From NCBI GenBank assembly GCA_030622115.1, contig JAUXGN010000003.1, positions 35,465-99,464 of the forward strand: 64,000 nucleotides of DNA, read 5' to 3'. The notes under the pieces were generated by a model. It was not told where the DNA came from. It saw only the letters and a list, made by a program, of their open reading frames with translations, and ran no database searches. Shown here piece by piece: positions 24,190 through 64,000 of the stretch. Made by a program: the position numbers and the translations under genes. Origin of the DNA: Candidatus Eiseniibacteriota bacterium. GTDB taxonomy: Bacteria; Joyebacterota; Joyebacteria; Joyebacterales; Joyebacteraceae. How positions within the stretch are numbered: position 1 is the first letter of the stretch; each line of letters starts with the position of its first letter.

Positions 24190-24464
24190 CACTTCCTCCT
24201 TCACCGCTTGTGTTTTCGGTTCGAGCGCCTCAGGGACAAGAACGGGATCGAAGCGCATTGTCGTACGCCCGATCCCGGTGCAAGTCACGCGGATACAAAC
24301 AGAGAAACATTACCGCGCTCAGAGCTACCGTTGGGCATCGCTTTCACGATGCGTCAGATCATCAATGTCGGCTCTTTCAGGACGGTAGCAGTGTGGTGAG
24401 CGGTGTTTCTCCCCTGATGCAGCTGCCGGATGCGAATGCCAGCTTGATTGTTTCTATTGAAGAT

Positions 24465-28079: not shown

Positions 28080-28130
28080 CTGCATCCTCCTTGAGCCGAC
28101 AATAACAACCATAACTACAACTATTACCAT

Positions 28131-29692: not shown

Positions 29693-30952
29693 TCATCGAT
29701 ACAGCGCCTTGATCCTACCCCAGCTCTTGCGCTCAACCGGAACATCCGTTGTCTCAAGCCAGATGTCGTCGAGCGCAATCCCGGCTCCTCCCGCGACCCC
29801 CGGTCCGCATCCGTTCGATGTCGTGAAGAAGCGGATCATGAACTTGAATGATGTCCCAGGGAAGAGATGCGTAATGCCGTGTCCGGTAACGCCCGCGTTT
29901 CCCCAACCGTCGCACGACTCGAAGTCACCCCAGTACGCTCCCAACTGATACCACGATGCTCCATCATCTACCGATGCGTAGACGCTCCAGTAGTCGTTAT
30001 CCACGGTTGGCACTTCGGCGTGCAGCATGTAGCGCAGCGTGCAGGCGACCGAGCGATCGAGGCCGCTCAAGTCGACCGCCGGTGACTCCAGACGATTGTC
30101 CAGGTTGGGCGGGATGTGGCCGGTATCGGCGTCGTCTCCGCACCACCAGCTGCATGGATCGCTGTAGGCGGCGCACCGCCTGTCAGTGATGTGCCAGTAG
30201 TCTCCCACGGCCGGACGCACGCTGGGATTGCAGAGACCTCCGTTCTCGACATCGTCGAGAAAGTACGTCTCACCGCCGTAGTAGTCGAAGACCTTGATGT
30301 TATCAACGTGGTACGCGCCGCCGATCGAGTCGAAGCCACCGTCTTCATCTGAGATCGTGCCGTCCGAGAGAAAGCGGAAGCGAAGCTCCAGCGGGTGGTC
30401 GTATCCCTCGACAACGTATCCGTAGACACCGAAGTCCTGCCAGGAACCACCGGGTATCAGACCGCAGTAGCCCGGGTTCAGATCTGTGAATTCACCCCCG
30501 TCCTTCACTTGCACGTAGGTGAAATCGGAGCCCGGCTCGGAGTGGTAGTAGTGCGCGAATGTGAGTATCGGGTAGTCGGCGCCGGACACGTCGATGAGAG
30601 GTAGCTCAAGGCGATCGTCCCACTGGTCTCCGTATCCACCGTCCGAGTCGAAATCGAACGAACCGCACCACCATGAGCGTTCGCCCTCAAAGGCCATGTA
30701 GGTGTTCACATGAAAGTGCGGCGCTACGCCCCACGTGTTGTCTCGGTGATTCCAGCCGGCTTCGCCGCTCTCCATGTCGTCGTACCAGATAACGGTGCCC
30801 CGCGTCCTCGGGGATCGGAATGCGCGTGTGTCCATCTCGGGAGTTGCTCTGCCGTACGTGGGAAACACGAGAACCAGCGTGACGATCAGGAGAAGGCCGA
30901 CGAGATTTCTCATGTGAGTACGCCGCATCTGCGGGGATTTCGATCCGGACAT
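29693..30952 (-). CDS. secreted Cys/Trp-rich protein (paralog B, ~60% identical to 28349..29584)
   Basis: 419 aa; AAGGAGAG SD; same module order and Cys positions; C-terminus 'PVERKSWGRIKALYR'. Confidence 0.6.
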   Translation of the reverse strand: MSGSKSPQMRRTHMRNLVGLLLIVTLVLVFPTYGRATPEMDTRAFRSPRTRGTVIWYDDMESGEAGWNHRDNTWGVAPHFHVNTYMAFEGERSWWCGSFDFDSDGGYGDQWDDRLELPLIDVSGADYPILTFAHYYHSEPGSDFTYVQVKDGGEFTDLNPGYCGLIPGGSWQDFGVYGYVVEGYDHPLELRFRFLSDGTISDEDGGFDSIGGAYHVDNIKVFDYYGGETYFLDDVENGGLCNPSVRPAVGDYWHITDRRCAAYSDPCSWWCGDDADTGHIPPNLDNRLESPAVDLSGLDRSVACTLRYMLHAEVPTVDNDYWSVYASVDDGASWYQLGAYWGDFESCDGWGNAGVTGHGITHLFPGTSFKFMIRFFTTSNGCGPGVAGGAGIALDDIWLETTDVPVERKSWGRIKALYR

Positions 30953-36197: not shown

Positions 36198-38270
36198 ATG
36201 CCTCGATCGCCCAGAACGAGATTCCCGATAGTGCTGATCACGATCCTGTTCGTGACCCTCACGGGTTCAGCCGGAGCTGTTTCGACATCGTACTGGCTCA
36301 CGGACGAGTATCGGGAATTCCTTGACGGAGCGCCGACCGGCGTCTCCCTTCTGGAAGCCGGGCGTCTGGTTTTGGGACCGGCTCCTGAGAGAATCGAGAT
36401 TCCGGAAGTGCAGTATGTGTGGGGTGCGGTCGAGGGGCGCGACGGAGTGATGCACATAGTCACGGGAACACCAGGCAGGCTGTACCGGATCAAGCGGGGT
36501 GACTTCGAACTCCTTATCGAGATGGAAACGCAGGATCTGCCGGCGATCGCGGCCGGACCGGATGGAACCATCTACGTAGGGACATCGCCCGGTGGAGAGG
36601 TCTACCGGGTTCGTGTGGATGAGGATCCTGAGCTGCTCTGCGAGACGGGAGACGGGTATATCTGGAGCATGGTCTGGTCCGAAGCGCATGGTCTTCTCGT
36701 CGGTACAGGGGAGATGGCCAGGGTGGTGGCGGTCGATTCCAGGGGACGGATGGAGGTCATCTACGAGTCGAGCGATCTCAACATCGTTGTGCTCGCTACG
36801 ATCGGTGACAGAGTTCTCGCAGGAACCAGTGGGGACGGTCTCTTGCTCGACGTTACGCCGGGCCAAAGGGTCAGTGTTGTCTATGACTCGCCGTACGATG
36901 AGATCTCCGGTGTTGTGTCGTCAAGCGATGGCGCTCTCTACTTCTCTGCGACCAGCGTTGATCTGAATGGGATGCTTGATGAGTTCGCAGGTTCGGAGCT
37001 TCCGATCGGTAACGGTTCCGTCTACAGGGTGAGTGGTGGAGGGGCGATCGAAATATGGCATTCCGCGGACGCGCCAGTCGTCTCACTGGCGGCCGGGCCG
37101 GATGGGGCCATTTGGGCGGGGACCGGCGCCGGCGGCCGCGTGTTCTCTGTCAGGCCGAGCGAGGCAGGTTTGATGGTCGATCTCGATGAGGAGGAAATCC
37201 TGGCAATGGCCGCGACTCCTGATGGGATCGTCTTCACCACCGGTACTCCAGGATCCGTCTACAAGGTTCGCGAGGGGACGTTGGAGTCGGGAAGGTATGA
37301 ATCCGACGTGCTCGATGCGGCGACGTCGGCTTCCTGGGGGAGCTTGAGCATCAGAGCGGAGGAATGGGGTGGTCGTCTCACTGTCGGTACTCGCTCGGGC
37401 AATGTTATGGAACCCGACGACACATGGAGCGACTGGATCGATCTTGTCGACGGCTCGATTGTGAGCCCTGGGGCTCGCTTTCTTCAGTGGGCAGTCGAGT
37501 TCGATCGCGGTCGGGGTTCAGGGCCGATCGTGCACGCTGTTGAGATAGCTTTCCTTCGGGAGAACGTGGCGCCCGAGATCCTGCGTGTGAATGTCTATCC
37601 GGCCGGGCGTGGTTTCTCCGATCGTGAGAACTCCGCGGGTAGTGCGAGCCAGACTCTGTCTTCCGGGGTCGATGTCACATATTCCATCAACGCCTCAGAG
37701 CACTCCGCTCTGGGCGCGCCGCCGGTGGTGAGAGGACTCAGAACGGCGGAGTGGGATGTCATGGATATGAATGGAGACATCCTGTCATTCGACGTCTATG
37801 TGAAGAGCGAGAGCGATGAGGAATGGGGTCTGATGGAGGAAGGGCTTGAACGAACCCTCCATACGTGGGACTCCGTTTCGATGCCGGATGGGGATTATCG
37901 AATCCGGGTTCTGGCCACAGATGCACCGGACAACCGTGCGGATCTCGCTGCCACCGCAGAGGCCGTGAGTCCCATTTTCACCGTGGACAACAGTCCGCCG
38001 AGTGTGGATGGCATCGAGCTCAGGCGCAACGGGAGAGCGATTGTCATCGGCGCGAGCATCAGGGATGCTCTGAGTCCGGTAGTCGGAGTGGAGGTGTCGA
38101 TCGATTACGGGGAGTGGATGCCGGCGTTTCCTGTCGATGGGATGTTCGATTCGCGTGCCGAAGCGGCAACGTTCAGATTTGAGGATCTGGCGCAGGGGCG
38201 GCACGCTGTGGCGGTCAGGGCGGCCGACCGGGCGGGAAACATAGGTGTGGCGCGGATTGCCGTGAACTAG
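36198..38270 (+). CDS. secreted beta-propeller protein with C-terminal Ig-like domains, uncharacterised; 10 nt downstream of the S55-like gene
   Basis: Strong AAGGAGGG SD; signal peptide; repeated 'GPDGxIYVGT…GGxVYRV' blades. Confidence 0.5.
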   Translation: MPRSPRTRFPIVLITILFVTLTGSAGAVSTSYWLTDEYREFLDGAPTGVSLLEAGRLVLGPAPERIEIPEVQYVWGAVEGRDGVMHIVTGTPGRLYRIKRGDFELLIEMETQDLPAIAAGPDGTIYVGTSPGGEVYRVRVDEDPELLCETGDGYIWSMVWSEAHGLLVGTGEMARVVAVDSRGRMEVIYESSDLNIVVLATIGDRVLAGTSGDGLLLDVTPGQRVSVVYDSPYDEISGVVSSSDGALYFSATSVDLNGMLDEFAGSELPIGNGSVYRVSGGGAIEIWHSADAPVVSLAAGPDGAIWAGTGAGGRVFSVRPSEAGLMVDLDEEEILAMAATPDGIVFTTGTPGSVYKVREGTLESGRYESDVLDAATSASWGSLSIRAEEWGGRLTVGTRSGNVMEPDDTWSDWIDLVDGSIVSPGARFLQWAVEFDRGRGSGPIVHAVEIAFLRENVAPEILRVNVYPAGRGFSDRENSAGSASQTLSSGVDVTYSINASEHSALGAPPVVRGLRTAEWDVMDMNGDILSFDVYVKSESDEEWGLMEEGLERTLHTWDSVSMPDGDYRIRVLATDAPDNRADLAATAEAVSPIFTVDNSPPSVDGIELRRNGRAIVIGASIRDALSPVVGVEVSIDYGEWMPAFPVDGMFDSRAEAATFRFEDLAQGRHAVAVRAADRAGNIGVARIAVN

Positions 38271-38959: not shown

Positions 38960-39136
38960 CGCAAGCAACCTCAAGACAATGCTAACTACCCAGACGTCCA
39001 GGTCCGCGAGATCCGCACCCACGTGTCGAGCGGGATCGAATGCGAGCCTCGAGGCGTATGCGAGGACGCGTGTGGGCGAGCTGAAACTCGGATGGGTATC
39101 TTGTGTGGATGATGGGTTTCAGGTCGGACGGGGAGG

Positions 39137-39189
39137 CGTTGGCCGATCTCGTGCCGCGTCTCACTCTACGCAGACGGGATCGGCCAACG
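39137..39189. repeat. 12-bp perfect inverted repeat (CGTTGGCCGATC-N29-GATCGGCCAACG) in the convergent intergenic region
   Basis: Read directly from the sequence. Confidence 0.6.
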
Positions 39190-39200
39190 TCGGCGAAAAT

Positions 39201-39632
39201 CTACTGATCCTGATTCGTGTCGCCGTCCGTCCGTCCGGCGCCGGGCACGAGCTGGACGGGCTTGCCGTTCTTCTCGATATCGACGGCATTCCGCTTCACG
39301 ATCACGTGGAAGATGATGAGACCGATTCCGAGAAAGAGCGGGACGAGGGCGCCGATGGCGGCATCATTCCATATGCCGAGAGTAATGAAGCCGATGACCT
39401 GGGCGATGCCGATTGCGAGAAGAGCGATGCCCCATCCGAGCGCCGCGTTGCCGCCGGGTCTCTTCTCTGGACGAATAATCGTCGGATCGTAGATACCCTT
39501 CTGGAGAGCCAGTTCGAACGACTCCTTGCGTGTCCGGTCCCCGTTCATGAATCCTTTGACAATCAGCATTACTATGAGCACTGCGGACCCGATGCTGACC
39601 AGGGCGGTCATGAAGCCAAAGAACATACTCAT
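39201..39632 (-). CDS. small integral membrane protein (4 TM), uncharacterised
   Basis: Start 'MSMFFGFMTAL…' with an AAGGGAGAG SD; hydrophobic throughout. Confidence 0.45.
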   Translation of the reverse strand: MSMFFGFMTALVSIGSAVLIVMLIVKGFMNGDRTRKESFELALQKGIYDPTIIRPEKRPGGNAALGWGIALLAIGIAQVIGFITLGIWNDAAIGALVPLFLGIGLIIFHVIVKRNAVDIEKNGKPVQLVPGAGRTDGDTNQDQ

Positions 39633-39993
39633 TGTGGATCTCTCCCTTCTCTGCCCAGGCCGCACCGCCGATGTTTCCGATTCTCCAGATCCACTGGCAC
39701 GACGGCCGCTGAGCTGCCCGTTTTCACCTCTATTATCGTTCTGTTCATTTTCTTTGACATCGATCCGCCGGAGTATGTTTCAGCTGATACAGCCCTCCCG
39801 GGAGCAGGCACCGGTCATCATGGCCGATACGACAGTATGTCAGGAGAGACAGTCCGGTTCAGCGATGCTTGGAGTATGAAACAGTTTGGATCAGGAAGGG
39901 GTTCTGGTACCATTACACGCTGGTCCCGGGGGACGGGTTTTCGTCTGCCCGACCGCAGCACTGCAGAGCTGGGCGCGCAGACGCGGAGGGCCA

Positions 39994-40587
39994 ATGGCTA
40001 GATCGGATTCTCCGCGCACCCACATATCGACGGACGACCAGCTGGTGGCGAAGGTCCAGGCCGGCGACCAGAGCGCGTACGCTGTTCTGGTCGAGCGCTA
40101 CTCGGACTTCGTGTTCACGATCGCGGTGAGGATCATAGGTGATGAGGATGACGCGGCCGACATCGCTCAGGAGACGTTCGTTCGCGCCTACAAGGCGATA
40201 GGCCGATTCAGAGGCGACTCGAAATTCTCGAGTTGGCTCTATCGAATAGCGGCCAATCGGGCGCTCACGCACCTCAAGCGCAAGAAGCGACGCCCCCAGA
40301 CGGTGGACATCGATCTCGGGGCTCACATCGAGGCGGATGCGCTGACGAGCGGCAATCGCGATGACCCCGGTCAGCAAGTGCTTGACGATGAGTTCCGTCG
40401 GGCCATGCGCGACGCTGTGTCCAAGCTACCGGAGCAGTACCGAACAGTCATAGCGCTCTTCTATCTCGAAGAGAGGAGTTACAAGGAAGTCGCCGAGACG
40501 CTCGGCATTCCGATGGGAACACTCAAGACTCATCTTCATCGGGGCCGGGCGATGTTGAGAGAGGTTCTTAAGGAACGAGGATTCTGA
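39994..40587 (+). CDS. ECF-subfamily RNA polymerase sigma-70 factor
   Basis: Region 2 'DAADIAQETFVRAYKAIGRFRGDSKFSSWLYRIAANRAL' and region 4 'SYKEVAETLGIPMGTLKTHLHRGR'. Confidence 0.85.
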   Translation: MARSDSPRTHISTDDQLVAKVQAGDQSAYAVLVERYSDFVFTIAVRIIGDEDDAADIAQETFVRAYKAIGRFRGDSKFSSWLYRIAANRALTHLKRKKRRPQTVDIDLGAHIEADALTSGNRDDPGQQVLDDEFRRAMRDAVSKLPEQYRTVIALFYLEERSYKEVAETLGIPMGTLKTHLHRGRAMLREVLKERGF

Positions 40588-40602
40588 GAGCGGGAGGAAA
40601 GA

Positions 40603-41418
40603 GTGAGCGAGAGCAGTCTGGATTTCCTGTTCGACAGGAGGAGTATCCTTCATTTCAAGGATGAGGAGATTCCTCAGGATGTTCTGAACAAGGTGCTTGT
40701 GGCTGCACAGCGGGCATCGGCGCCGGGTGGGACTCTGACCGGCGGTTACCGCGGGGCACAGCCAATCTCCATCATCGTAGTTAAGAACAAGGCTCGCAGA
40801 GCTCAGTTGAACGAGATGCTGTGTGAAGGACGGAAGGTCTGCATTCAGGAGGCGCCGGTCTCTCTGATCTTCTGTGTCGACACGCATCGCCTGAACAGGT
40901 GGGCCGCCCTTGATGGTGGAGAGTCTCATTTTGGCGGCATGGGCGTTCTGTGGGTATCCCTGCGGGCGGTCTACACGGCTGCTCAGAACTCCGTCATCGC
41001 AGCTGAGGCCATGGGGCTTGGATCGCAGTACATCCAGGAGATCGTTTGGCAGCCGCATACGGCGCTGGACTTCTTCGAGCTTCCAAAGCAGGTGATGCCG
41101 GTCACGATGCTTGTTCTGGGCTATCCATCCGAGCGACCACCGCTTGCTCCAACGCTTCCTCTTGAGGCGATCGTGCATGAGGAGACCTATCACGATCCCC
41201 CTGACGAGGAGCTGCTCGCCCACTACGCCGACAAGGAAGCCTACTATCAGGATTGGATCAGCAACCTTCCGGAGGACTCGAAGCTCAGGAAGCACATCAA
41301 GAAGCAGGGCGTGGAGACACTGGCTCAGTTCGTCTCGCAAGTCACGTACACCGAGAGCTTCTACAGGTGGCGGGACGACATGATCAAGATCAACCTCGCT
41401 GTGTCCGAACTGGAGTAG
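40603..41418 (+). CDS. nitroreductase-family protein
   Basis: 271 aa; 'RRSILHFKDEEIPQDVLNKVLVAAQRASAPGG' FMN-binding N-terminal block and the overall nitroreductase fold pattern. Confidence 0.65.
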   Translation: MSESSLDFLFDRRSILHFKDEEIPQDVLNKVLVAAQRASAPGGTLTGGYRGAQPISIIVVKNKARRAQLNEMLCEGRKVCIQEAPVSLIFCVDTHRLNRWAALDGGESHFGGMGVLWVSLRAVYTAAQNSVIAAEAMGLGSQYIQEIVWQPHTALDFFELPKQVMPVTMLVLGYPSERPPLAPTLPLEAIVHEETYHDPPDEELLAHYADKEAYYQDWISNLPEDSKLRKHIKKQGVETLAQFVSQVTYTESFYRWRDDMIKINLAVSELE

Positions 41419-41480
41419 TTTGCGTGCTGACCAGGGTAGACCACGCGGGTTCGAGCACACCGGGGGAGAGAGATACACTC

Positions 41481-53685: not shown

Positions 53686-54846
53686 TCAGACCACCGAGTG
53701 ATCCAGATCGACATCGCCTTCCGAGAACCGCCTCGCGTTCAACCTGTCGATATCCAGATCCGGCTTCTGTCCGAGGATGAGCTGCGAGAGAAGGGATGAC
53801 ACCTTCGGCGCGATCATGAACCCATGACCGCTGAAGCCGTTCGCCTGGAAGAACCCGTCGACTCCATCAGTCTCACCGATGATAGGCTGCGCATCCGGCG
53901 TTACATCGTAGAGGCCCGCCCACTGACGCACCACCTTCACGTGCTTGAGAGCCGGCATGAGGAAACTCAGCTTGCGCGACATCATCGTCAGGAAATCGAT
54001 ACTCGATTCCTCGTTGAAACCAGGAGCCTCGTCCGCGTAGGCGAACCCGCCTATCACTGACCCATGCTTCACTTGGCGAAAGTAGATGCCGAAACTGAAC
54101 GAGATTATCATCGGGTCGAAGAAACGTTCCAGTGGTTCCGTCACGAGAATCTCCCGGCGATAGGGAGTGATAGGGATTTCCACGTCCACAGTCCGAGCCA
54201 GCGGAACGCTGTGGCTTCCTGCTGCGTTCACAACACGAGGTGTGTTGATGATCCCTCGCTCGGTCTCGACGCCCACGATTCGATTCCCCTCACGGAGGAT
54301 ACGAGTCACCGGCGTGAAGAGCTCGATCTCGACGCCAAGTCTCACTGCAGCTTGAGCGTACGCCTTCGTTGCGAGAAAGGGGTTCGCGCTTGCGTCCGTT
54401 GGGCAGTAGGTGGCCATGCGAACACCGTCGGTGTTCACTTGTTTGACCACACGAGACGCGATTTCCTCAGGCTGGAGGATCTCCACATCGAGTCCGAGTC
54501 TGCGCTGGAGTTCGAAGTTCTTGTGGAACTGCTCTACGTCCTCGTCCGTGTAGGCAAGAACGAGATAGCCTCCCTGCAGAAATTCGATGTCGGCATCCAG
54601 CTCTTCCTCGATCGTCTTGAAGATGCGTACGCTGTCCATGGCAAGCTGCGCGTTCGGTTCCGTGCTCCACTGCTGCCGGATCCCGCCTCCACATCTGCCC
54701 GTGGCTCCGCTCGACAGATACTCCGACTCGAGTAGAACGCAATTCGTCATCCCGCCCTTGGCGAGGTAGTACGCGACAGCAGCGCCAATGATGCCGCCAC
54801 CTATGATCACGCAGTCAGCGTTGGTTCTCATGACGCCTCTTGTCAA
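53686..54846 (-). CDS. FAD-dependent oxidoreductase, sarcosine oxidase beta / PDH1-beta-like amino-acid dehydrogenase subunit
   Basis: 'DCVIIGGGIIGAAVAYYLAKGG' dinucleotide fold; DAO family; last of four overlapping minus-strand genes. Confidence 0.8.
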   Translation of the reverse strand: MTRGVMRTNADCVIIGGGIIGAAVAYYLAKGGMTNCVLLESEYLSSGATGRCGGGIRQQWSTEPNAQLAMDSVRIFKTIEEELDADIEFLQGGYLVLAYTDEDVEQFHKNFELQRRLGLDVEILQPEEIASRVVKQVNTDGVRMATYCPTDASANPFLATKAYAQAAVRLGVEIELFTPVTRILREGNRIVGVETERGIINTPRVVNAAGSHSVPLARTVDVEIPITPYRREILVTEPLERFFDPMIISFSFGIYFRQVKHGSVIGGFAYADEAPGFNEESSIDFLTMMSRKLSFLMPALKHVKVVRQWAGLYDVTPDAQPIIGETDGVDGFFQANGFSGHGFMIAPKVSSLLSQLILGQKPDLDIDRLNARRFSEGDVDLDHSVV

Positions 54847-55118
54847 TCCTCGTCACTTGCACCGGCGAGGATTCCTATCTCCACCGGCATAGTTGGCGGT
54901 CGGTCCAGAAGGGGTTTCATGTCGGCGACTTCTCCGCCGATCCTCTCTGTGATGATCCGAGCGATGAGACGCGAGCATGTCCTGCCCTGGCAGGGCCCCA
55001 TTCCTGTTCGGAGGACCCGCTTCAGTTCCTCCAGCGTGGTCAGACCCGAGTCGATAGCCTCGACTATCTCACCGTAGGAAACATCCTCACACCTGCATAT
55101 GATCACGTCGTCTTTCAA
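54843..55118 (-). CDS. BFD-like [2Fe-2S]-binding small subunit
   Basis: 91 aa; '[12 protein letters not shown]…GPCQGRTC' CxC…CxxxxC pattern; ATGA overlaps on both sides. Confidence 0.7.
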
Positions 55119-55615
55119 CTCCGGTCACCTCTGCGTCTGAAGTGCCTCACTGCCATCACGTGCTCTACCGGGACCTCGATCGATACGAGGGGTGTTCTGT
55201 CGAGCGCCTTGGTGTTGATCACACGAACGACGAGCGCGTCGCAGACAGCCTCGCCCTCTCTGTTGAGGGCCGACACGATCTCGCCCTTTTCGGGGAGCGG
55301 CGCGTACTCGTACGGGAGCACAACAACTCCCACACCGTCGGATCGACTCGCGTCGACGACGAATATGGCGAGGCCCGGACACGCGCTGATGCATAGCCCG
55401 CACCCGTTGCACTTGTCGTAGTCGACCGTCGGGGTGTTGTTGATGTCGCCCTCTATGATAATGGCGCCTTTCGGGCACGCCTGCACGCAGGGATTGCACG
55501 GGATGGATTCCACGCATTCGATGACGACAACGGGCCCCGCCTTCAACCTCGCGGGTGGCGGTGACAGCCGCCTCAATCCCTCGCCCCTCAGTATGCCGTC
55601 CCGTCTGTGGTTCAT
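55115..55615 (-). CDS. 4Fe-4S dicluster ferredoxin-domain subunit
   Basis: Two 'CxxCxxCxxxCP' motifs ([21 protein letters not shown]). Confidence 0.75.
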
Positions 55616-57075
55616 TAGGAACCAACCTTGAACATCTTCCTCTTTCCTTCTCGCGCCGTAGCGCCGAACGGGCCCGCCCGGAGTGTCTTGAGACTGCTTG
55701 TCGCCTCAGATCTCAGTCGCTTGAGCTCTTCTCTATCGACCTCTCTGCACAGTAGCTCAGCAGCCGCGAGCCCGGCAAGTCGCCCCTCTATCATAGCAGT
55801 TGACGCCTCTTCGATCCCCGATGCGTCGCCTGCTATGAAGACGCCGGAGATACTGGTCTCAAGATCCGGGTCGTGTGCCGCTACCGGCCCTCCAAGCTCG
55901 GCCACGTAGGTCTCTCGACATCCCATCTGGAAGGCCAGCTCGCAGTTCGGTGTCAGCCCGACAGCGAGACACACGGTATCCACCGAAAGGGTGCGCTCGG
56001 ATCCCGGCACAGGCTGCCAGTGATCATCCACGCGGCATATCTCAGCGGACTCCACGCGGTCGGGCCCCGTGACCCTCTGAACAGTATGCGATGTCAGGAT
56101 CGGTACGCCCGCCCTTCGTATCTTCGCGGCGTGTACGTGGTAGCCTCCCACCTCCGGCGCGGCATCGATGACGGCCGCAACGTCAACGCCGGCCTGCAGC
56201 AGTTGATATGCGACGATCAGACCGATGTTTCCCGCTCCCACCATGAGCACGCGTTTCCCGGGAACGACACCATGCACGTTCATCAGAGTCTGAACGGCTC
56301 CAGCGCCGTAGACGCCCGGGAGGTCGCAATTCTCGAACGCCAGCATGTTCTCGGAGGCGCCCGTCGCAAGGATCACGGCGTCCGCTCTGAGTTCGATATG
56401 ACGTCTGTTTGCCAGAAGCGAGAGTGTCCGGTCTGGATAGAGTCCGAGAACTGTCGTTCCCAGCATGAGCTTGACAGGAAGACCGCTGAGGTTCGCGATC
56501 AACTCGTCCCCAATGTCGATTCCGCGGATCTGCGCGTAGTGCTCGCGCGAGCCGAAGAACATGTGGGTCTGCTTGATCAGCTGCCCGCCGGGGACATCGT
56601 TCTCATCAATGACGATCGTTTCTACTCCCATGCGTCCGGCGTATGCTGCTGCCGACAGTCCCGCCGGTCCCGCGCCCACGATAGCGAGCGATACTGTCGC
56701 GACATCCTTGGCGCCTCGTCTCGCTTCGGTCGGCCGAGAACCCGGGGAGAAGGATTCGGTGAGCAGGATGGCTCCCTTTCCTCGCTGGGTTTCGACCTTC
56801 ATGTCTTCCTTGAGTGGGGTCACGCAGGTCATGATGTTCGGGATTCCGTCGACCGTCATCAGACATGACGAGCATCGTCCTATGGCGCAGAAGAAGCCTC
56901 TCGGACGCTTTCTCTTGATGCTCTCCCGAAACACTCGAATGCCGTTCGCGTGAAGCGCGGCTGCGATACTCTCGCCCTCGAATCCGAGTAGCTTCCTGCC
57001 ATCGAATTCGAATTCGATCTCTCGACCGCGGTCAAACTCGAGTATCGGGTGTTGGGTCAGTCGCACGACCGGCAT
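55615..57075 (-). CDS. sarcosine oxidase alpha / PDH1-alpha-like NAD(P)/FAD-dependent oxidoreductase subunit with N-terminal 2Fe-2S region
   Basis: N-terminal '[19 protein letters not shown]'; '[16 protein letters not shown]' and a second GxGxxG '[15 protein letters not shown]' pyridine-nucleotide-disulfide oxidoreductase fold. Confidence 0.8.
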
Positions 57076-57278
57076 CTCCGAAGCTGGAGTCTTTTACTCA
57101 GACAGTAACGTTTTGACGCTCGCACCGTCTGGGAGTAAGATGGGGTTCAAGAGAACGCTCCCACCTTGCGGGAGCGTCTCTCCGAACACCTTCGATGACG
57201 ATAGCACTCCCGGAGGCCGGGGGCAATACGAATGTCCCAGCAAGAGCGCCGTTGTTCCTGAGGTGGGTGGGAGATGAC

Positions 57279-58097
57279 ATGAGAGTGGCCACAGCTATGA
57301 CGATAGCCGGTTCGGATTCATGCGGTGGGGCCGGAATCCAGGCTGATCTGAAGACGATGATCGCCTTTGGTGTGCACGGGACGAGCGCACTTACGTCGAT
57401 CACGGCACAGAACACCCTCGGTGTGGGGAAGACCCTTCACCTTCCGGCCGAGCTCGTCGGAGAGCAGATCGACGCGATCATGGATGACATGGGGGCGGAT
57501 GCCGCGAAGACCGGAATGCTGGCTACCGAGGAGATCATGGAGGTCGTCGCTGATCGTATCCGAACACGCAGGATTCCCAACGTTGTCGTGGACCCGGTCA
57601 TGGTGGCGACGTCCGGCGTGAGACTGATGGATGAGAAGGCGACTGACGTATTCGTGAGGGAGATTCTCCCTTTGGCGCTTGTGATCACTCCCAATGTAGA
57701 CGAGGCTCGAGTTCTGGCCGGATTCACTGTGGACACACTGGCAGCGATGAGAGATGCGGCGCGCGCGATCTACGATGTGACCGGAGCATCTGTCCTGGTC
57801 AAGGGTGGACACATGGGCGGAGACGCGACTGATGTCCTCTACGATGGAGTGGAATTCCGCGACCTCACGGGCAGGAGGATAGAGGGAGGAAGAATCCACG
57901 GGACCGGTTGCACGCTTGCGGCCGCGATCGCGTCCGGGCTCGCGTGCGGCGACGCTCTCACGCGAGCCGTCGAGAACGCGAAAGACTTCGTGACCCGCGG
58001 CATCGAGGAATCGTTCGACATCGGGAGAGGCAGTGCGCTCTTCAACCACACGGTTCATGCCGTGTCTGCCGGGGGTGACGGCAGGATGGAGGAGTAA
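57279..58097 (+). CDS. thiD: hydroxymethylpyrimidine/phosphomethylpyrimidine kinase
   Basis: '[20 protein letters not shown]' N-terminus and '[11 protein letters not shown]', 'VKGGH' blocks; the six-frame ORF has a spurious N-terminal extension. Confidence 0.85.
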
Positions 58098-58098
58098 A

Positions 58099-59037
58099 TT
58101 GAAGCACGTGTTTGGACCAGTACCATCACGAAGACTCGGTCTATCTCTCGGTATCGACCTCCTGACACCAAAGATCTGCACGATGGACTGTACATACTGC
58201 GAGCTGGGCCCGACGACCGACAGGAGAATCGAACGAGGTCGTTTCGTCAACCTGGATGAGGTCCTGGACGAGCTCAGGACGCGTCTTGCCGAGGAGCCGG
58301 ATGTGGATTTCGTCACGTTCTCGGGTTCCGGTGAGCCGACGCTGAGCCTTGATCTAGGGCCTGCGATCGACGGTGTCCGGGTGGTGACGGATACGAGGAT
58401 AGCGGTTCTCACGAACGGGAGCCTGATGACGGATCCCGATGTCCGGAAGGCTCTGATGAGAGCCGATGTCGTGATCCCCTCCGTGGATGCCGTTTCCATG
58501 CAGGCGTTTCAGCGTATCAACAGGCCCCATCCCGGCCTGGATCCTGAGGCCATTGTCGAGGCCATAGCCACTTTTACGGCGGAGTTTGACGGTGAGGTCT
58601 GGCTCGAGACCGTAATCGTGAGGGGCGTGAACGACGATCTTCAAGAGGTGTCGCGACTTGCGCACGCGGCCGGTTTGATCTCTCCGGCAAGAATTCACGT
58701 GAACACCGTCGTGCGACCACCGGCCGTGGCCGGAACTGAGGCGGTAGGTGACGGTCGCCTGCACGAGATTGCGGAGGCTCTCGGTTCCCTTGCGGAGGTG
58801 GTGGCGCCGCCGAGCGTTCAGTCGCACCAGTTCGCAGCCGACTCGGTGGAGGTGATCATTGACATGGTGGCCCGGAGACCTGTCACGATCGGAGACATAG
58901 CATCAGCGCTGGGCTTCAGCCTCGCCGAAGCCGCGAAGATTGTTGGATCACTCCTCGATGGCAAGCGGTTAGAGGTTGTACGGCATGGGGATCTGCTGTA
59001 CTATGTACCCATTGCTCGCAAAGGGGAGGGGTCGTGA
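58099..59037 (+). CDS. radical SAM protein (CX3CX2C) with a C-terminal winged-helix-like region; specific function unknown
   Basis: TTG start 5 nt after a GGAGG SD (GTG at 58108 is also possible); 'FGPVPSRRLGLSLGIDL…CTMDCTYCELG' cluster motif. Confidence 0.65.
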   Translation: MKHVFGPVPSRRLGLSLGIDLLTPKICTMDCTYCELGPTTDRRIERGRFVNLDEVLDELRTRLAEEPDVDFVTFSGSGEPTLSLDLGPAIDGVRVVTDTRIAVLTNGSLMTDPDVRKALMRADVVIPSVDAVSMQAFQRINRPHPGLDPEAIVEAIATFTAEFDGEVWLETVIVRGVNDDLQEVSRLAHAAGLISPARIHVNTVVRPPAVAGTEAVGDGRLHEIAEALGSLAEVVAPPSVQSHQFAADSVEVIIDMVARRPVTIGDIASALGFSLAEAAKIVGSLLDGKRLEVVRHGDLLYYVPIARKGEGS

Positions 59038-59756
59038 AGCTTGCTATAAAGGGATTCGACCATATGTCCCTTGTTGACTGGGATGGAATGGTCGCTGCGA
59101 CGCTGTATCTGCCTAGCTGCAATTTCCGATGTCCCTATTGTCACAACGCCGGGCTTGTTCTCTTGCCCGACCAGTACGAAACCATCTCGCTGGATGATGT
59201 GATCTCTTACGTCACCGAGCACAATGATTTCCTCGACGGTGTGTGCATCACCGGCGGTGAGCCGTGTATGCACAAGGGTCTTCCCAATCTGATCCGGACT
59301 CTCAGAGACTCCGGCATGCGCGTCAAGCTGGACACCAACGGCTCGTTTCCCGACATGCTCGACCGACTCATTGCAGATGAGTTGGTGGATTATGTGGCGA
59401 TGGACGTCAAGGCTCCATTGGACTTCGAGTCATACGCGAGGAGCGCTGGCATCACTGATCGTCGTATTTTCAACAAGGTTCGTGAGAGCATCGATATCCT
59501 GTTGGATGGTCGGGTCGACTATGAGTTCCGAACGACCGTCGTGCCCACACTGCACCGAGCCAGCGATATGAAGCTGATCGCGGAACAGATTCGGGGAGCG
59601 CGACGCTACGTCATCCAGAACTACATCGCTCGTGACACGCTGGATCCCGCCTTCATGGATGAGTCTCCCTACAACTCAGAGCGTCTGAACGAATTCAAGG
59701 AGATGGTGGGGCGCAAGGTTGAGGAGTGTGTCATCAGAGGGAAGGTTGATGTGTAG
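59034..59756 (+). CDS. NrdG/PflA-like glycyl-radical-enzyme activating protein family radical SAM protein
   Basis: ATGA overlap with the upstream gene; 'DWDGMVAATLYLPSCNFRCPYCHNAGL' and 'GVCITGGEP' match class III RNR activase family proteins. Confidence 0.7.
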   Translation: MKLAIKGFDHMSLVDWDGMVAATLYLPSCNFRCPYCHNAGLVLLPDQYETISLDDVISYVTEHNDFLDGVCITGGEPCMHKGLPNLIRTLRDSGMRVKLDTNGSFPDMLDRLIADELVDYVAMDVKAPLDFESYARSAGITDRRIFNKVRESIDILLDGRVDYEFRTTVVPTLHRASDMKLIAEQIRGARRYVIQNYIARDTLDPAFMDESPYNSERLNEFKEMVGRKVEECVIRGKVDV

Positions 59757-59840
59757 GGACATCGACGGTGTTGCTACTCCCTGATCATCGCTGCGGTGTT
59801 GGCCGACACGCGAGACGAAGTGGAGAGATGAACGAAGATG

Positions 59841-59862
59841 CGCCGGCTGCCGCCGGCGTTTT
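59841..59862 (+). terminator. short intrinsic-terminator-like hairpin (CGCCGGC-tgcc-GCCGGCG) followed by TTTT
   Basis: Read directly from the sequence ~85 nt after the stop at 59756. Confidence 0.4.
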
Positions 59863-59916
59863 CATGTTTGGCAGCGCCATTCTGCGAGGAAATGCCTGCG
59901 CCCACGGGCAGGGAAC

Positions 59917-60645
59917 CTAGCGTCGGCGTCTCGGCTTGCGGGACGGCGGTCTCGGGTCGCGTGGCCCGGGAAGGAGTGTGTGTCGCCGATACATGCGCGC
60001 CCGTAGCTGCTTGACACTGGTTGCACCCCGGGCGTCGTTCGGGTCGATCTCGTGTGTTCCCACGATCAAGAGCACGAAGGTGTAGCAGGAGGCCAGCACC
60101 AAGACAAGCGACGCCACGATCGTTGTCGGTCCAAGTGAGAGAGCGCTTACCACTCCGGCGACGCCGTAGCAGGTTCCAGCGATCGCGTGGATCCAGCGGA
60201 GGTTACGGTTGGCGATCGGCGTGACCGAATTCAGGAATGCGAGCGCAAGGAGCAGCGTTGGTTGAACAGTGACTCCGAGCGGGGAGAAGACGAACGCCGG
60301 CAGGTCTCCCGAGTGGCCGGGGTAGGCGACCGCGAAGCCGGCCGCCACCAGCATGAGACCGAGTCGAAGCCGGGGCGTGTGCTCGAACGACGTGTGGAAG
60401 CTGGGGCGGATCGCCTCGCGGAACCATGCAACTGCGAGCGCTCCACTCACAAGCCCTCCCGCCAACCACCAGGCGGGATGTGAACGAAGTGCTACGGTAG
60501 TCGTCGCGAAGGCGAGTGCCATGTAGGCGCTCAAGACCCTCCCGACCTTCTCGCGCCGGATCCACCATACGACGGCGACCGTGAAAATGAGCAGATGATG
60601 AAACCCCGCCAGCGGTAGATGGCGAAGCGCGATCTCGACATCCAT
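59917..60645 (-). CDS. integral membrane protein (6-7 TM) with a basic Pro/Arg-rich C-terminal tail, uncharacterised
   Basis: 242 aa, hydrophobic; 3-nt gap to the upstream HypE-like gene. Confidence 0.45.
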   Translation of the reverse strand: MDVEIALRHLPLAGFHHLLIFTVAVVWWIRREKVGRVLSAYMALAFATTTVALRSHPAWWLAGGLVSGALAVAWFREAIRPSFHTSFEHTPRLRLGLMLVAAGFAVAYPGHSGDLPAFVFSPLGVTVQPTLLLALAFLNSVTPIANRNLRWIHAIAGTCYGVAGVVSALSLGPTTIVASLVLVLASCYTFVLLIVGTHEIDPNDARGATSVKQLRARMYRRHTLLPGPRDPRPPSRKPRRRR

Positions 60646-60648
60646 TCT

Positions 60649-61716
60649 CTACGTCATGCCTTTCCTCAAAGCTTGCTTATCGAGATACTCCTCGAAGCGA
60701 ATCCAGAATGGATCGACCTTCGGGTGCTCGAGGTCGTGCTCTCCGTGTTCATCACGGACGATGATGCCCCGCTCTGCAGGCAGCAGTTCTCCCACGGCCG
60801 ATGCGGGAATGCCCTCGGCTTCGAGGGCCGCGAGTACGGCATCGACGCTCTCCGGCGCCACGGTTGCCACGAGTGTGCCTTCGCTGATGGCCTTGTATGG
60901 ATCTATGTCGAAGACCTCACAGACTCTCATGACCACATCCTGGGTTACGATGCTGCTCTTGTCGACCAGGAGTCCATGGCCGGATGCGCTCGCGATTTCG
61001 AACAACGCTCCCCATATTCCACACTCGGTCGCATCGTGCATGGCCGTCGCGCGGCCGGCCTTCGTGACGATGGCCGCATCACGCACGACCGACATCTGGT
61101 AGAAGACTTCCTGAGCTCGCCGCGTTGTATCCTCTCCGAGCGCTTCCGTGATGAACTCAGGGAACTGCATCGACATGAGCCCGGTCGTTTCGATCGCCGG
61201 CCCCTTCGTGATGATGATGACGTCACCCTCGGATGCCTTCCTCGGATCGACCAGGTCCTCTGGGCGTCCCACGCCGATCACCGTGGCTCCACCGACCATC
61301 GGGTAGTTGCAGCCGGCGTACCTGGCTGTGTGTCCCGTTACGATGGCCACGCCGAGGCGTTTGGCCTCCTGGTGTATTGTGTCCCATATCGTGGTGAGCG
61401 TCTCCTCGTCCATTTCGGGAGGCAGGTTCAGATCGACGGTGAAGTAGCGCGCCGGGATCCCACTCACCGCGACGTCGCTGAGCAGTATGTGGAATGCAAA
61501 CCACGCGGCGCGTTCCCAGCCGAGCGCCGGTGCGATGAAGAACGGATCGCACGACATGACCATGATCTGGTCTCCGATCTCCACGGCGCCGAAATCGACA
61601 CCGTGTGTCGGTCCGACTCGCACGGAGGGATCGGCCGCGCCGAGTCGAGGGAAGATGACCTCATCGAAAAACTCTGGTGTCGCCTTGCCGAGCGGCGGGA
61701 GCTTGGTTGTTGACAT
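60649..61716 (-). CDS. AIR-synthase-related (PurM superfamily) protein, HypE-like
   Basis: 'SDVAVSGIPARYF…LGVAIVTGHTARYAG' parallels the HypE 'NDVAVSGAIPRYL…GIAIVTGDTKV' block; PurM N- and C-domain arrangement. Confidence 0.6.
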   Translation of the reverse strand: MSTTKLPPLGKATPEFFDEVIFPRLGAADPSVRVGPTHGVDFGAVEIGDQIMVMSCDPFFIAPALGWERAAWFAFHILLSDVAVSGIPARYFTVDLNLPPEMDEETLTTIWDTIHQEAKRLGVAIVTGHTARYAGCNYPMVGGATVIGVGRPEDLVDPRKASEGDVIIITKGPAIETTGLMSMQFPEFITEALGEDTTRRAQEVFYQMSVVRDAAIVTKAGRATAMHDATECGIWGALFEIASASGHGLLVDKSSIVTQDVVMRVCEVFDIDPYKAISEGTLVATVAPESVDAVLAALEAEGIPASAVGELLPAERGIIVRDEHGEHDLEHPKVDPFWIRFEEYLDKQALRKGMT

Positions 61717-61802
61717 TGTCTGCCAGTCCTTCCTGTTCGTGCTGTCGCGTCTGAGTTCTGATCCCGCGGCCCTCGTTGCTTCCGTTGGCGATTGCCGCGG
61801 CG

Positions 61803-62261
61803 CTACTTCAACTTCAAGTACTTCGCCAGTGTGGCGCGATGACTTGCGAACGCTATGTCGTGAGGCAGATCTGCAGATGTGAAGAAGTGAGCGTCCGCTG
61901 CATCATCACCTGGAGTAAGCGTTCCCCCGAGAATGCGCGCGGTGAAAGCGAAACAGACGATGGGAGTCCTCGGGTCTTCTCCACTCGACCAGGAATCGAA
62001 TAGACAATCGATTCCGATCCGAAGTCCGGTCTCCTCCTCGACTTCACGCACCGCGCTCTCCTCCGGCGTCTCGTTCTGCTCGATGAACCCCGTGGGGAGG
62101 CACCAGAGTCCCTCGCCCGGTGGGTACTTGCGTCTGACAAGCAAGATGGCGCCATCGCGCTCGGCTATCACGGCGGTGACCGGAGCGGGATTCAAGTAGA
62201 GAATGTAGTTGCAGTCGGGGCACATGGGTCTTGAGTGACCACGCACATTCCTCATAGCCAA
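61803..62261 (-). CDS. NUDIX hydrolase with N-terminal zinc-ribbon
   Basis: 'CPDCNY' ribbon; Nudix box 'GFIEQNETPEESAVREVEEETGL'. Confidence 0.8.
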   Translation of the reverse strand: MAMRNVRGHSRPMCPDCNYILYLNPAPVTAVIAERDGAILLVRRKYPPGEGLWCLPTGFIEQNETPEESAVREVEEETGLRIGIDCLFDSWSSGEDPRTPIVCFAFTARILGGTLTPGDDAADAHFFTSADLPHDIAFASHRATLAKYLKLK

Positions 62262-62366
62262 GTGTGCTCCGCAGCGCGGACAGTACTCAAGGCTTCGGTA
62301 GTTGTTCTGTCCATCGATATCGTAGCTGATACGCGTGTCCTCCAGCGCGAGGCGGTTGTGGTGGCG

Positions 62367-63047
62367 TCACCGAGCGTCTTCCCCTCGCCCCGAATGCTCG
62401 CGACTCGCGGCAAGGGCGTTCTGGAGAGTGTCGATTGCGGCAATGGGGTCGTCTGCGAAACAGACGGCGGACACGACGGCCGCGAATCTCGCTCCGGCCG
62501 CCACTACCATTGCCGCATTCCGGACTCCCAGTCCACCGATAGCAACTATCGGGACATTGGGCATTGCCTTCGTGATGTCGACTATCCTGTCAATCCCGAC
62601 CGGGTCATCGGCATCGGGCTTCGTATCGGTCGCAAACACCGGTCCCACTCCGAAGTAGTCCACGTCCGCATCCACGGCCACAGCGTCCGCAACCGTATTG
62701 ACAGAGAGCCCGACTATGGCGCCCGGTCCGACGATTCTCCGAGCGATCACAGCGTCGGCATCCTGCTTCCCGACGTGGACGCCGTCAGCATGAACTGCCG
62801 CGGCGATGTCGGGGCGATCATTGATGATGAGCCTGGTCCCGGTCCCGTTGGTCACATCCCTGAGCGCACGCGCCAGTGTCAACAGCTCGGGGTCGGGAAG
62901 CTCCTTCTCCCTGAGTTGTATGATCGGGACACCGCATCGAACGGCCGCGCGCGCGAGCTCGACGTGCGGGATATTCGGGGCTGTGATAACGAGGTAGAGC
63001 CCGCTTCCTACGAGCCTGCTGCAGATGCCGCCGTCATCTGAACTCAT
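62367..63047 (-). CDS. thiE: thiamine-phosphate synthase
   Basis: 'VPIIQLREKE', 'INDRPDIAAAVHADGVHVGQDD', 'VGLS' and 'DYFGVGPVFATDTK' blocks. Confidence 0.85.
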   Translation of the reverse strand: MSSDDGGICSRLVGSGLYLVITAPNIPHVELARAAVRCGVPIIQLREKELPDPELLTLARALRDVTNGTGTRLIINDRPDIAAAVHADGVHVGKQDADAVIARRIVGPGAIVGLSVNTVADAVAVDADVDYFGVGPVFATDTKPDADDPVGIDRIVDITKAMPNVPIVAIGGLGVRNAAMVVAAGARFAAVVSAVCFADDPIAAIDTLQNALAASREHSGRGEDAR

Positions 63048-63087
63048 GGCTGGCTCCCTTGGTGCTGCGTGTCGGTGTGCCGAGACA

Positions 63088-63876
63088 TCAAGGTGTACTG
63101 CTGTCGCCTAGCTCGGCGAGGATTTGCTTCGCTACCTTTCGGCCCGAGAGAAGCATGCCTCCGAAGATTGGGCCCATTCTGTAACCGCCGTGGACCGCTG
63201 CTGCAGCCATGCCGGCCACGTAGAGTCCGGGGAAAACCTCGCCGGTCTTCTCGACGACCGTCTTCTCACCGTTTTCGGCCCACATACTCTTCTCGCCCAC
63301 AATGCCTCCGGTCTCCGTCGCGAGTCTGACGCCCATCTTCCGAACGGTGACATGAACGATGTCCGAATCATGGCCGGTGGCATCCAGTACGATCTGCGCG
63401 GAAATCGACAGCGGGTCAACGTGAAGCCCGGCTGCGGTAACGGGGCTCCAGAGGATGACCACGCCTGAGATGCGGTCGCGTGAGAAGAGGACGTCTTCGA
63501 CCTTGCACGTGTTGAAGATCTTGAGGCCTGCCTTGCTTGCACCGTACGCAAGAGCCGCGGCAGTTTGCACTGCGTCCGCCGTATAGTATCCCTCGTCGTG
63601 AGGACGGTAGTCTATTCCGAAGTCGTCCATGATCGGCAGGGCGTCCTTCCGGACAACGATCTCGTTGAAGAGCATTCCTCCGCCCCAGATGCCACCGCCG
63701 GTTGACAGCTTGCTTTCGAAGAGAGCGACATTCCTCCCGGTCTCAGCCAAGTATCTGCCGGCGACCAGTCCGGCCGGTCCGGCTCCCACGATGGCCACAT
63801 CCAATTCCAATGACTCCGAGAACTTCTCGAAGAACCGCTGTGATATGGCTCTCGTAACGGCAACATCACTGATCAT
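63088..63876 (-). CDS. thi4: Thi4-family thiazole synthase (archaeal/sulfide-dependent type)
   Basis: '[20 protein letters not shown]…GGGIWGGGMLFNEIVV' and 'VLDATGHD' blocks; GGAGAG SD. Confidence 0.8.
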   Translation of the reverse strand: MISDVAVTRAISQRFFEKFSESLELDVAIVGAGPAGLVAGRYLAETGRNVALFESKLSTGGGIWGGGMLFNEIVVRKDALPIMDDFGIDYRPHDEGYYTADAVQTAAALAYGASKAGLKIFNTCKVEDVLFSRDRISGVVILWSPVTAAGLHVDPLSISAQIVLDATGHDSDIVHVTVRKMGVRLATETGGIVGEKSMWAENGEKTVVEKTGEVFPGLYVAGMAAAAVHGGYRMGPIFGGMLLSGRKVAKQILAELGDSSTP

Positions 63877-63931: not shown

Positions 63932-63980
63932 CGGGACCCTTGTCCCGGACAGAGAAATGCGGGACCCTTGTCCCAGACAG
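63932..63980 (-). promoter_or_regulatory. two 21-nt near-identical hairpin-forming elements (CGGGACCCTTGTCCC[G/A]GACAG, period 28) in the 5' region of thi4; truncated by the window end; function unknown
   Basis: GGGAC-ccuu-GUCCC stem-loops read from the sequence 56-104 nt upstream of the thi4 start. Confidence 0.35.
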
Positions 63981-64000
63981 GGGAGCCCCGCGTCATTCGC

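Follow-up and report, generated by a model that had tools for sequence, protein, structure and literature searches.

Two convergent operons form a thiamine locus in Candidatus Eisenbacteria

We analyzed a 64,000-nucleotide stretch of contig JAUXGN010000003.1 (positions 35,465 to 99,464; referred to here as the window) from a Candidatus Eisenbacteria bacterium. Bases 57279-63876 of the window are a thiamine (vitamin B1) locus made of two convergent operons. As a system, the locus is of a known kind: a thiamine operon that follows the Thi4 route under riboswitch control. Its candidate new elements are a protein from an unnamed clade of the PurM superfamily, which we propose as a candidate kinase of thiamine phosphate (TMP), a candidate ADP-thiazole hydrolase of the NUDIX family, and an unclassified membrane protein. 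Operon A runs on the minus strand from 63876 to 59917 in the order thi4, thiE, zinc-ribbon NUDIX, PurM-like gene, and membrane protein gene. Operon B (plus strand, 57279-59756) consists of thiD and the genes for two radical S-adenosylmethionine (SAM) proteins, rSAM1 and an NrdG2-like protein. Genes were called from an open reading frame (ORF) listing together with Pfam and NCBIfam scans with curated cutoffs, as follows.

57279-58097, plus strand: thiD, kinase of hydroxymethylpyrimidine (HMP) and its phosphate (HMP-P); TIGR00097 298.5 bits (cutoff 205), PF08543 E 2e-86
58099-59037, plus strand: rSAM1, radical SAM protein of 312 aa, with KHVFGPVPSRRLG and CX3CX2C
59034-59756, plus strand: NrdG2-like radical SAM activase-like protein of 240 aa; TIGR02495 187.7 bits (cutoff 131.15)
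59840-59859, both strands: GC-rich hairpin between the convergent operons, with T-runs on each strand; likely a bidirectional terminator
59917-60645, minus strand: membrane protein; no Pfam match
60649-61716, minus strand: PurM-like protein; HypE model TIGR02124 89.6 bits (cutoff 251.6), ThiL model TIGR01379 74.4 bits (cutoff 184.15)
61803-62261 by the first canonical start, 61803-62330 by the likely start, minus strand: zinc-ribbon NUDIX; PF00293 75.4 bits
62367-63047, minus strand: thiE, thiamine-phosphate synthase; TIGR00693 173 bits (cutoff 145)
63088-63876, minus strand: thi4, sulfide-dependent ADP-thiazole synthase; TIGR00292 309.2 bits (cutoff 148.3)

The remainder of the window was surveyed with Pfam. 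The scans took in the 38 ORFs beyond the cluster that do not overlap one another and reach 189 aa, and all ORFs of at least 210 aa were included. Among ORFs of at least 210 aa, a range that leaves out proteins the size of ThiS or HypC, this survey found no ThiC, ThiL, ThiG, NrdD/PFL, HypD, or HypF in the 64 kb. A preliminary description of the locus had listed thiD, thiE, thi4, two radical SAM genes, a HypE-like PurM protein, and a NUDIX gene, and we recovered all of them at the same coordinates with strong domain matches. Its radical SAM protein with an FGPVPSRRLG N terminus and a CX3CX2C motif is rSAM1. The absences it had reported also held for the window ORFs in that size range: no thiC, thiL, or thiG, no glycyl-radical enzyme near the activase, and no hypD or hypF to accompany the HypE-like protein. 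Its view of the whole as a noncanonical thiamine pathway stood only in part, as described below: a ThiL-type kinase was supported, whereas a radical SAM route to the pyrimidine and a ThiO-like FAD oxidase were not.

The nearest relatives of rSAM1 and of the PurM-like and NrdG2-like proteins came from metagenome-assembled genomes (MAGs) named Candidatus Eisenbacteria. Base composition is even along the window and thus gives no sign of a foreign island. Each of the 20 Eisenbacteria-type loci that we recovered (L002-L009 and L095-L106) keeps the two-operon layout, with identities of 55-90% among the relatives that share it and down to about 55% for rSAM1. Since the flanks of these loci are conserved too (DUF3160, a flavoprotein operon, a beta-CASP nuclease, and gltX), gene adjacency within Eisenbacteria says little about function by itself.

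A thiamine diphosphate riboswitch precedes operon A in relatives

The Rfam model of the thiamine diphosphate (TPP) riboswitch, RF00059 (gathering score, 54.3 bits), matched L002, L003, L005, L007, L096, and L103 at 59.7-65.4 bits. The riboswitch lay 5' of thi4, or 5' of a ThiE-NUDIX gene where thi4 is missing, and never 5' of thiD. Counted as distinct relatives, five have it ahead of operon A. No RF00059 match falls inside the window, where the predicted aptamer position, about 97-193 nt upstream of thi4, lies past base 64000. The 124 nt of thi4 leader that the window does hold align with the expression platform directly 3' of the L002 aptamer. Because relatives carry the riboswitch and the leader aligns in this way, we infer that operon A of the window is under TPP control. 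Two regulatory features were located upstream of the operons.

63932-64000, minus strand: thi4 leader, with two tandem terminator-like hairpins at 63975-63960 and 63947-63932
57113-57141, plus strand: promoter-like site before thiD, TTGACG-17-TAAGAT, with -35 and -10 boxes conserved in four Eisenbacteria loci

The two thi4-leader hairpins are near-identical (GGGACAAGGGTCCCG followed by a T-run) and are present as a single copy in L002. The tandem pair suggests that the riboswitch expression platform was duplicated locally.

The conserved site before thiD resembles a sigma-70 promoter. It is followed by a leader of about 140 nt (57145-57285, plus strand), which is predicted to fold at -55.7 kcal/mol (z score, -2.35) with its Shine-Dalgarno sequence paired. 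This leader is partly conserved in L002 and L103 and is short in L008, and it matched no Rfam family at an E value of 1 or less. A home-built covariance model, which rests on four Eisenbacteria sequences and could miss divergent aptamers, found no TPP aptamer upstream of thiD over 1.3 Mb of loci; its only hits were the positive control and one spurious match within a coding region. The thiD leader may be a regulatory element of some kind, or nothing.

The PurM-like protein is a candidate thiamine-phosphate kinase

The PurM-like protein has the two-domain fold of the PurM superfamily. It scored below the cutoffs for both HypE and ThiL, and all 22 members of its family examined also fell under the ThiL cutoff. 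A phmmer search of PDB sequences matched HypE and no ThiL. In HypE, the C-terminal cysteine carries the cyanide precursor. The window protein ends in LRKGMT, without cysteine, and a cysteine occurs within the last six residues in only 6 of 165 clade sequences. The window protein carries the motifs GHTARYAGC and MHDATECG, which correspond to the clade motifs GHT(A/G)xY and HDxTE(G/C)G. The clade therefore differs from HypE (solved structures 2Z1E and 3VTI) in its missing cysteine, in having TECG or TEGG where HypE has TRGG, and in the lack of hypD and hypF in the window. It differs from ThiL (3C9R, 2YXZ, and 5DD7) in its scores and in having motifs of its own. Locus L107 does hold a true hypFCDE cluster, complete with a HypE of its own. 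Judged by these sequence features, the PurM-like protein is neither HypE nor canonical ThiL.

The family of the window protein is 59-65% identical across Eisenbacteria, Calditrichota-like bacteria, Omnitrophota, Patescibacteria, Aenigmarchaeota, and Hydrothermarchaeota. The wider clade comprises 747 clusters at 50% identity (E value of 1e-30 or less) and occurs in Eisenbacteria, Omnitrophota, Calditrichota-like bacteria, Patescibacteria, and DPANN archaea. None of 116 near-full-length clade representatives matched any NCBIfam model at an E value of 1e-45 or less, and the labels that clade members now carry are "AIR synthase family protein" and "hydrogenase maturation factor."

Gene fusions are the decisive link between the clade and thiamine. 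ThiE and ThiN are unrelated enzymes that catalyze the same reaction, and the PurM-like domain was found joined to each of them. The best clade representative, P0361, has a PurM-like::ThiN arrangement, and its 90% cluster includes P0511 of a Micrarchaeota MAG (PIT85303.1); the same arrangement is seen in P0399. The reverse order, ThiN::PurM-like, occurs in P0380, with eight members on separate contigs. P0523 joins the PurM-like domain to ThiE with a complete TMP-TENI domain. A further candidate, P0467 (PurM-like with PfkB), was discarded as a likely frameshifted ORF.

Fusion to both ThiE and ThiN, together with the TPP-riboswitch operon, places the clade next to thiamine-phosphate synthesis. 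A ThiL-like kinase is the most economical role for it, because ThiD is present at the locus and the conversion of TMP to TPP is the only step without a gene, and because another member of the PurM superfamily performs that conversion. We therefore consider the PurM-like protein a probable TMP kinase, an analogue of ThiL. The suggestion in the preliminary description that the HypE-like protein might serve as a ThiL-type kinase is to that extent supported, by the riboswitch operon in relatives, the ThiE and ThiN fusions, and the absence of HypE hallmarks.

To our knowledge, ThiL is the enzyme to which the step from TMP to TPP, the last in making the cofactor, is uniformly assigned in both bacteria and archaea. 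If another large clade of the PurM superfamily also acts as TMP kinase, pathway reconstructions and auxotrophy predictions would change. Our literature search returned nothing relevant on ThiN/ThiL fusions or on Eisenbacteria and thiamine.

In an Omnitrophota MAG (L090, 6226-9323), the PurM-like gene directly follows genes for BioY and a major facilitator superfamily transporter, with a 1-nt gap, and an acylphosphatase gene comes next. Riboflavin synthesis genes lie upstream of this region, which makes the neighborhood vitamin-flavored; it has no riboswitch.

The NUDIX gene is a candidate for the ADP-thiazole hydrolase

The NUDIX box of the window protein, GFIEQNETPEESAVREVEEETGL, fits the consensus GX5EX7REUXEEXGU, and the protein also carries a four-cysteine zinc ribbon (CPRC...CPDC). 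Its closest solved relative is 3cng, and its closest named relatives are the ADP-ribose pyrophosphatase-type Nudix domains of NadM-Nudix proteins. Although it shares the zinc ribbon with the NAD(H) diphosphatase NudC, it scored 34.4 bits against that model (NF001299), under the cutoff of 158.

The NUDIX domain is fused to the C terminus of ThiE in L003 and L005. In the window, the NUDIX gene continues the reading frame of thiE, with one TGA between them (62369-62367, minus strand), and L002 has them as two genes that differ in frame. The first canonical NUDIX start is TTG at 62261, with the first CxxC of the ribbon upstream of it, and no ATG, GTG, or TTG occurs upstream of that CxxC (62240-62385, minus strand). 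An ATC at 62330 sits 7 nt past a GGAGGA. Translation likely begins at this ATC or continues from thiE through its TGA. Use of a rare start codon, read-through of the stop, and a sequencing error are all possible solutions to this puzzle. The zinc-ribbon NUDIX of the preliminary description is thus confirmed with two corrections, namely, that the ribbon begins 5' of the canonical start and that the gene shares the frame of thiE.

The Thi4 route needs a NUDIX-type hydrolase for ADP-thiazole (PMC4215014 and PMC10127261), an enzyme still called unidentified in the literature consulted here. Since the product of Thi4 is ADP-thiazole, the NUDIX protein is a natural candidate for the ADP-thiazole diphosphatase of the route. 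The operon thereby offers a concrete candidate gene for an activity that is relevant to moving catalytic THI4 pathways into crops.

Like the thiamin-associated Nudix of Goyer et al. (2013) and the MutT-ThiE proteins (PRK08999), the window protein is a Nudix domain physically linked to thiamin genes. Unlike MutT-ThiE, the order here is ThiE-NUDIX and the domain has an N-terminal four-cysteine zinc ribbon; the PRK08999 model gave the window NUDIX 35 bits against a cutoff of 245.

An Aminicenantes MAG (L075, 2298-4603) holds a zinc-ribbon NUDIX of the same architecture (97 bits), co-directional and tightly spaced with a DUF89 phosphatase gene and an rSAM1 homologue. Upstream of this group come two genes for MinD-ferredoxin proteins and one for DUF6485.

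Thi4, the membrane protein, and a proposed pathway

The window Thi4 carries the motif DATGHD, with histidine where suicide THI4 proteins have cysteine, a position that we assigned from a literature description of the two types (PMC4215014) and the yeast motif rather than from an alignment. By this motif, it is of the sulfide-dependent type. The route resembles the archaeal and yeast-type Thi4 route (Methanocaldococcus jannaschii type; EC 2.4.2.59) in pairing a histidine-type Thi4 with ThiE and ThiD. It differs in being bacterial, in having a TPP riboswitch (in relatives), and in having the NUDIX encoded in, or fused into, the operon. ThiE, the NUDIX, and the membrane protein make up the constant part of the riboswitch operon. 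In L005/L105 (contig Ga0194112_10000036), the operon is made of the TPP riboswitch, ThiE-NUDIX, the PurM-like gene, and the membrane protein gene, with no thi4, and the L003-type operon has no PurM-like gene.

By hydropathy, the membrane protein has about six to seven hydrophobic or transmembrane segments and a conserved basic C-terminal tail. It was assigned to no family by Pfam at an E value of 10 or less or by a profile search of PDB sequences. A metagenome scan recovered it in 12 loci, all of them the same Eisenbacteria-type thiamine cluster and always with its gene last. As a speculative proposal, the protein could be a candidate importer of thiamine or of a precursor such as HMP. Import of HMP, if true, would be an ordinary explanation for the missing thiC, with HMP salvaged through ThiD.

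These assignments can be combined into one pathway. Thiamine diphosphate would switch off operon A through the TPP riboswitch, which is seen in relatives and of which the window holds the terminator part. Thi4, by family membership, would form ADP-thiazole from NAD, glycine, and sulfide, and the zinc-ribbon NUDIX might cleave it to thiazole phosphate and AMP. ThiE, again by family membership, would join thiazole phosphate to HMP diphosphate, yielding thiamine phosphate, and the PurM-like protein may convert this to the cofactor with ATP, doing the job of ThiL, as the ThiE and ThiN fusions and the riboswitch operon suggest. The membrane protein could, speculatively, import thiamine or a precursor such as HMP. 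Operon B would supply ThiD and then a co-translated pair of radical SAM proteins without a thiamine-specific role, and the FAD oxidase next door would be unrelated. We consider this explanation as a whole to be moderately probable.

Several observations weigh against parts of this scheme, and they bear on two alternatives. The operons of L003, L004, L007, L096, and L098 have no PurM-like gene, and in four other lineages (Calditrichota-like bacteria, Omnitrophota, and Aenigmarchaeota among them) this gene lies among unrelated genes, without a riboswitch; canonical thiL is also usually dispersed in genomes. Fusion to a TMP synthase would fit an enzyme of the preceding step equally well, for instance an HMP-P kinase as in ThiD-ThiN fusions, which are known and give a precedent for an upstream kinase joined to TMP synthase. 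The PurM-like protein might then be thiamine-related without being a TMP kinase: it could use HMP-P or a thiazole intermediate as its phosphate acceptor, or it could activate the sulfur that the sulfide-dependent Thi4 requires. We regard such a role as unlikely. It is consistent with the fusions to ThiE and ThiN, which show only that the steps are adjacent; the PRK08573 model matched the ThiN part of the fusions. Cys136, Cys232, and Cys266 are invariant in the subfamily of the window protein, Cys136 lying in a low-confidence loop, and a SelD-like family has been proposed to produce a thiophosphate (PMC4210487). However, ThiD is already at the locus, leaving TMP kinase as the sole step without a gene. 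Those cysteines are missing from the ThiN-fused sister groups, which carry TEGG, and we set aside a catalytic role for them on this account; the clade also occurs in lineages where no Thi4 was seen nearby. The NUDIX assignment faces a stronger competitor, namely, a damage-control enzyme of the Goyer et al. (2013) kind that hydrolyzes oxidized thiamin diphosphates and not ADP-thiazole. Damage control is the known function of Nudix genes that are joined to thiamin genes or cluster with them (PMC4120688, citing that study). Moreover, the ThiE-NUDIX fusion is kept in L005, where the operon has no thi4, a persistence that damage control explains better. Against it, the nearest named relatives are of the ADP-ribose pyrophosphatase type, which suits an ADP-linked substrate, and the gene lies directly downstream of thi4-thiE in most loci. 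A damage-control function is a tenable possibility, and we still take hydrolysis of ADP-thiazole as the candidate function.

The radical SAM pair is probably not part of the thiamine system

The rSAM1 gene starts at TTG 58099, one base past the thiD stop and behind a GGAGGAG, and is translationally coupled to thiD; the start of the NrdG2-like gene overlaps the rSAM1 stop. The rSAM1 protein combines the FGPVPSRRLG N terminus and a single CX3CX2C with a C-terminal winged helix. In its predicted structure (predicted local distance difference test score, pLDDT, 86), an ArsR/SmtB-like winged helix accompanies a minimal radical SAM core whose nearest matches are NifB, PflA, viperin, and MoaA. ThiH ranked 34th among structural relatives and ThiC was absent from the ranking; rSAM1 also lacks the features that mark ThiC, a ThiC domain and a C-terminal CX2CX4C. 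Solved or named relatives of rSAM1 amounted to generic radical SAM matches, and a literature search on COG0731 gave nothing relevant.

The rSAM1 protein belongs to a widespread anaerobe family that is very large (more than 7,500 matches). We sampled its genomic context by scanning species-representative genomes, which gave 77 loci outside Eisenbacteria at 38-48% identity, from Desulfobacterota, Aminicenantes, Planctomycetota, Methanocellales, Methanoculleus, Moorella, and others. None of the 77 had ThiD, ThiE, Thi4, a PurM-like protein above 42 bits, or a close NrdG2-like gene in its flanks, and no TPP riboswitch was detectable in them with the home-built model. The recurrent neighbors in other phyla were MBL-fold hydrolases, DUF89 phosphatases, MinD/CbiA-ferredoxin ATPases, NifX-like proteins, DUF5320, and DUF6485. 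DUF89 and rSAM1 are neighbors in L094 and in at least seven loci spread over different phyla.

The second protein passes the equivalog cutoff for NrdG2 and has PflA as its best solved relative. Like NrdG2, it has an activase-type N terminus, with CX3CX2C in the form CNFRCPYC. Unlike the usual setting of NrdG2, there is no nrdD in the 64 kb, and the gene is coupled to rSAM1 and thiD; NrdD was also not found in L093, L094, and L107. In two other lineages, NrdG2-like homologues (50% identical) adjoin genes for thioredoxin, thioredoxin reductase, an AhpC/TSA-like protein, and DsbD, with an rSAM1 homologue at a distance of 4-5 kb. The thiol-redox regions that hold both genes are as follows.

L093, 3396-8714
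L107, 5375-10714
L094, 3459-9314

In L094, a Thi4 gene lies 1.5 kb upstream of the NrdG2-like gene, with no TPP riboswitch.

We conclude that rSAM1 and the NrdG2-like protein are probably passengers at the thiamine locus; they may be partners in a process, none of it tied to thiamine. The preliminary description had instead proposed that the pair forms an alternative route to the pyrimidine moiety, and had held that this would fail if canonical thiC and thiL lay elsewhere and if the pair had unrelated neighbors in other genomes. The latter is what we found for rSAM1, whose neighbors in the 77 loci are unrelated to thiamine. In its strongest form, that proposal would have Eisenbacteria lack thiC, with the two proteins, expressed with ThiD, taking over from ThiC and making HMP-P by radical chemistry. 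The absence of thiC from the window fits it, as do the 1-nt gap between thiD and rSAM1 and the overlap between rSAM1 and the NrdG2-like gene in every Eisenbacteria locus, and L094 adds one other lineage with Thi4 close by. This tight coupling may leave room for a lineage-specific thiamine role. Nevertheless, operon B has no TPP riboswitch, and the core of rSAM1 is generic, nearest NifB and PflA, and not ThiC-like. Since the rSAM1 homologues in other phyla have no thiamine neighbors and the second protein passes the NrdG2 cutoff, a pyrimidine route is unsupported, and we consider it very improbable. Another reading makes the pair partners in a thiol-redox-linked process unrelated to thiamine, in which the NrdG2-like protein would not simply be an activase of ribonucleotide reductase (RNR). 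Both sampled lineages outside Eisenbacteria (L093/L107 and L094) point this way, with rSAM1 homologues (231 and 145 bits) amid thiol-redox genes. These are only two independent lineages, however, and most rSAM1 loci lack an NrdG2-like gene. Thioredoxin systems are, moreover, known reductants of some class III RNRs, which would fit a true NrdG. We hold a thiol-redox partnership to be rather doubtful. The negative result on the radical SAM pair averts a false "new pathway" annotation.

The neighboring FAD oxidase is not ThiO

A four-gene flavoprotein dehydrogenase operon (53686-57075, minus strand), identified with Pfam and NCBIfam, diverges from thiD.

53686-54846, minus strand: DAO-type beta subunit (the FAD oxidase); best solved relative 1y56_B, 271 bits
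54843-55118, minus strand: BFD-like 2Fe-2S subunit
55115-55615, minus strand: 4Fe-4S subunit
55615-57075, minus strand: alpha subunit with Fer2_4 and Pyr_redox_2; best solved relatives 1y56_A/SoxA

ThiO feeds ThiG, whereas Thi4 uses glycine directly, and the Thi4 route needs no ThiO. The FAD oxidase scored 129.7 bits against the ThiO model (TIGR02352), under the cutoff of 250.8. Its match to 1y56_B, the beta subunit of the Pyrococcus horikoshii L-proline dehydrogenase complex, far exceeded the 110-114 bits obtained with glycine oxidases. The operon resembles P. horikoshii PDH1 (PDB 1Y56) and heterotetrameric sarcosine oxidase, in that the beta and alpha subunits match and small Fe-S subunits lie between them. 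By these matches, the FAD oxidase is the beta subunit of a PDH1-type four-subunit amino acid dehydrogenase outside the thiamine system. The preliminary description had asked whether it might be ThiO-like; these scores, and the lack of ThiG in the window, speak against it.

Elsewhere in the window, ORFs of 340-690 aa without a Pfam match at an E value of 1e-5 or less include 28349-29584, 29693-30952, 36198-38270, 38979-40001, and 40426-41478. Two very long ORFs lie on the minus strand, at 19471-24288 (1,605 aa) and 24675-28130 (1,151 aa).

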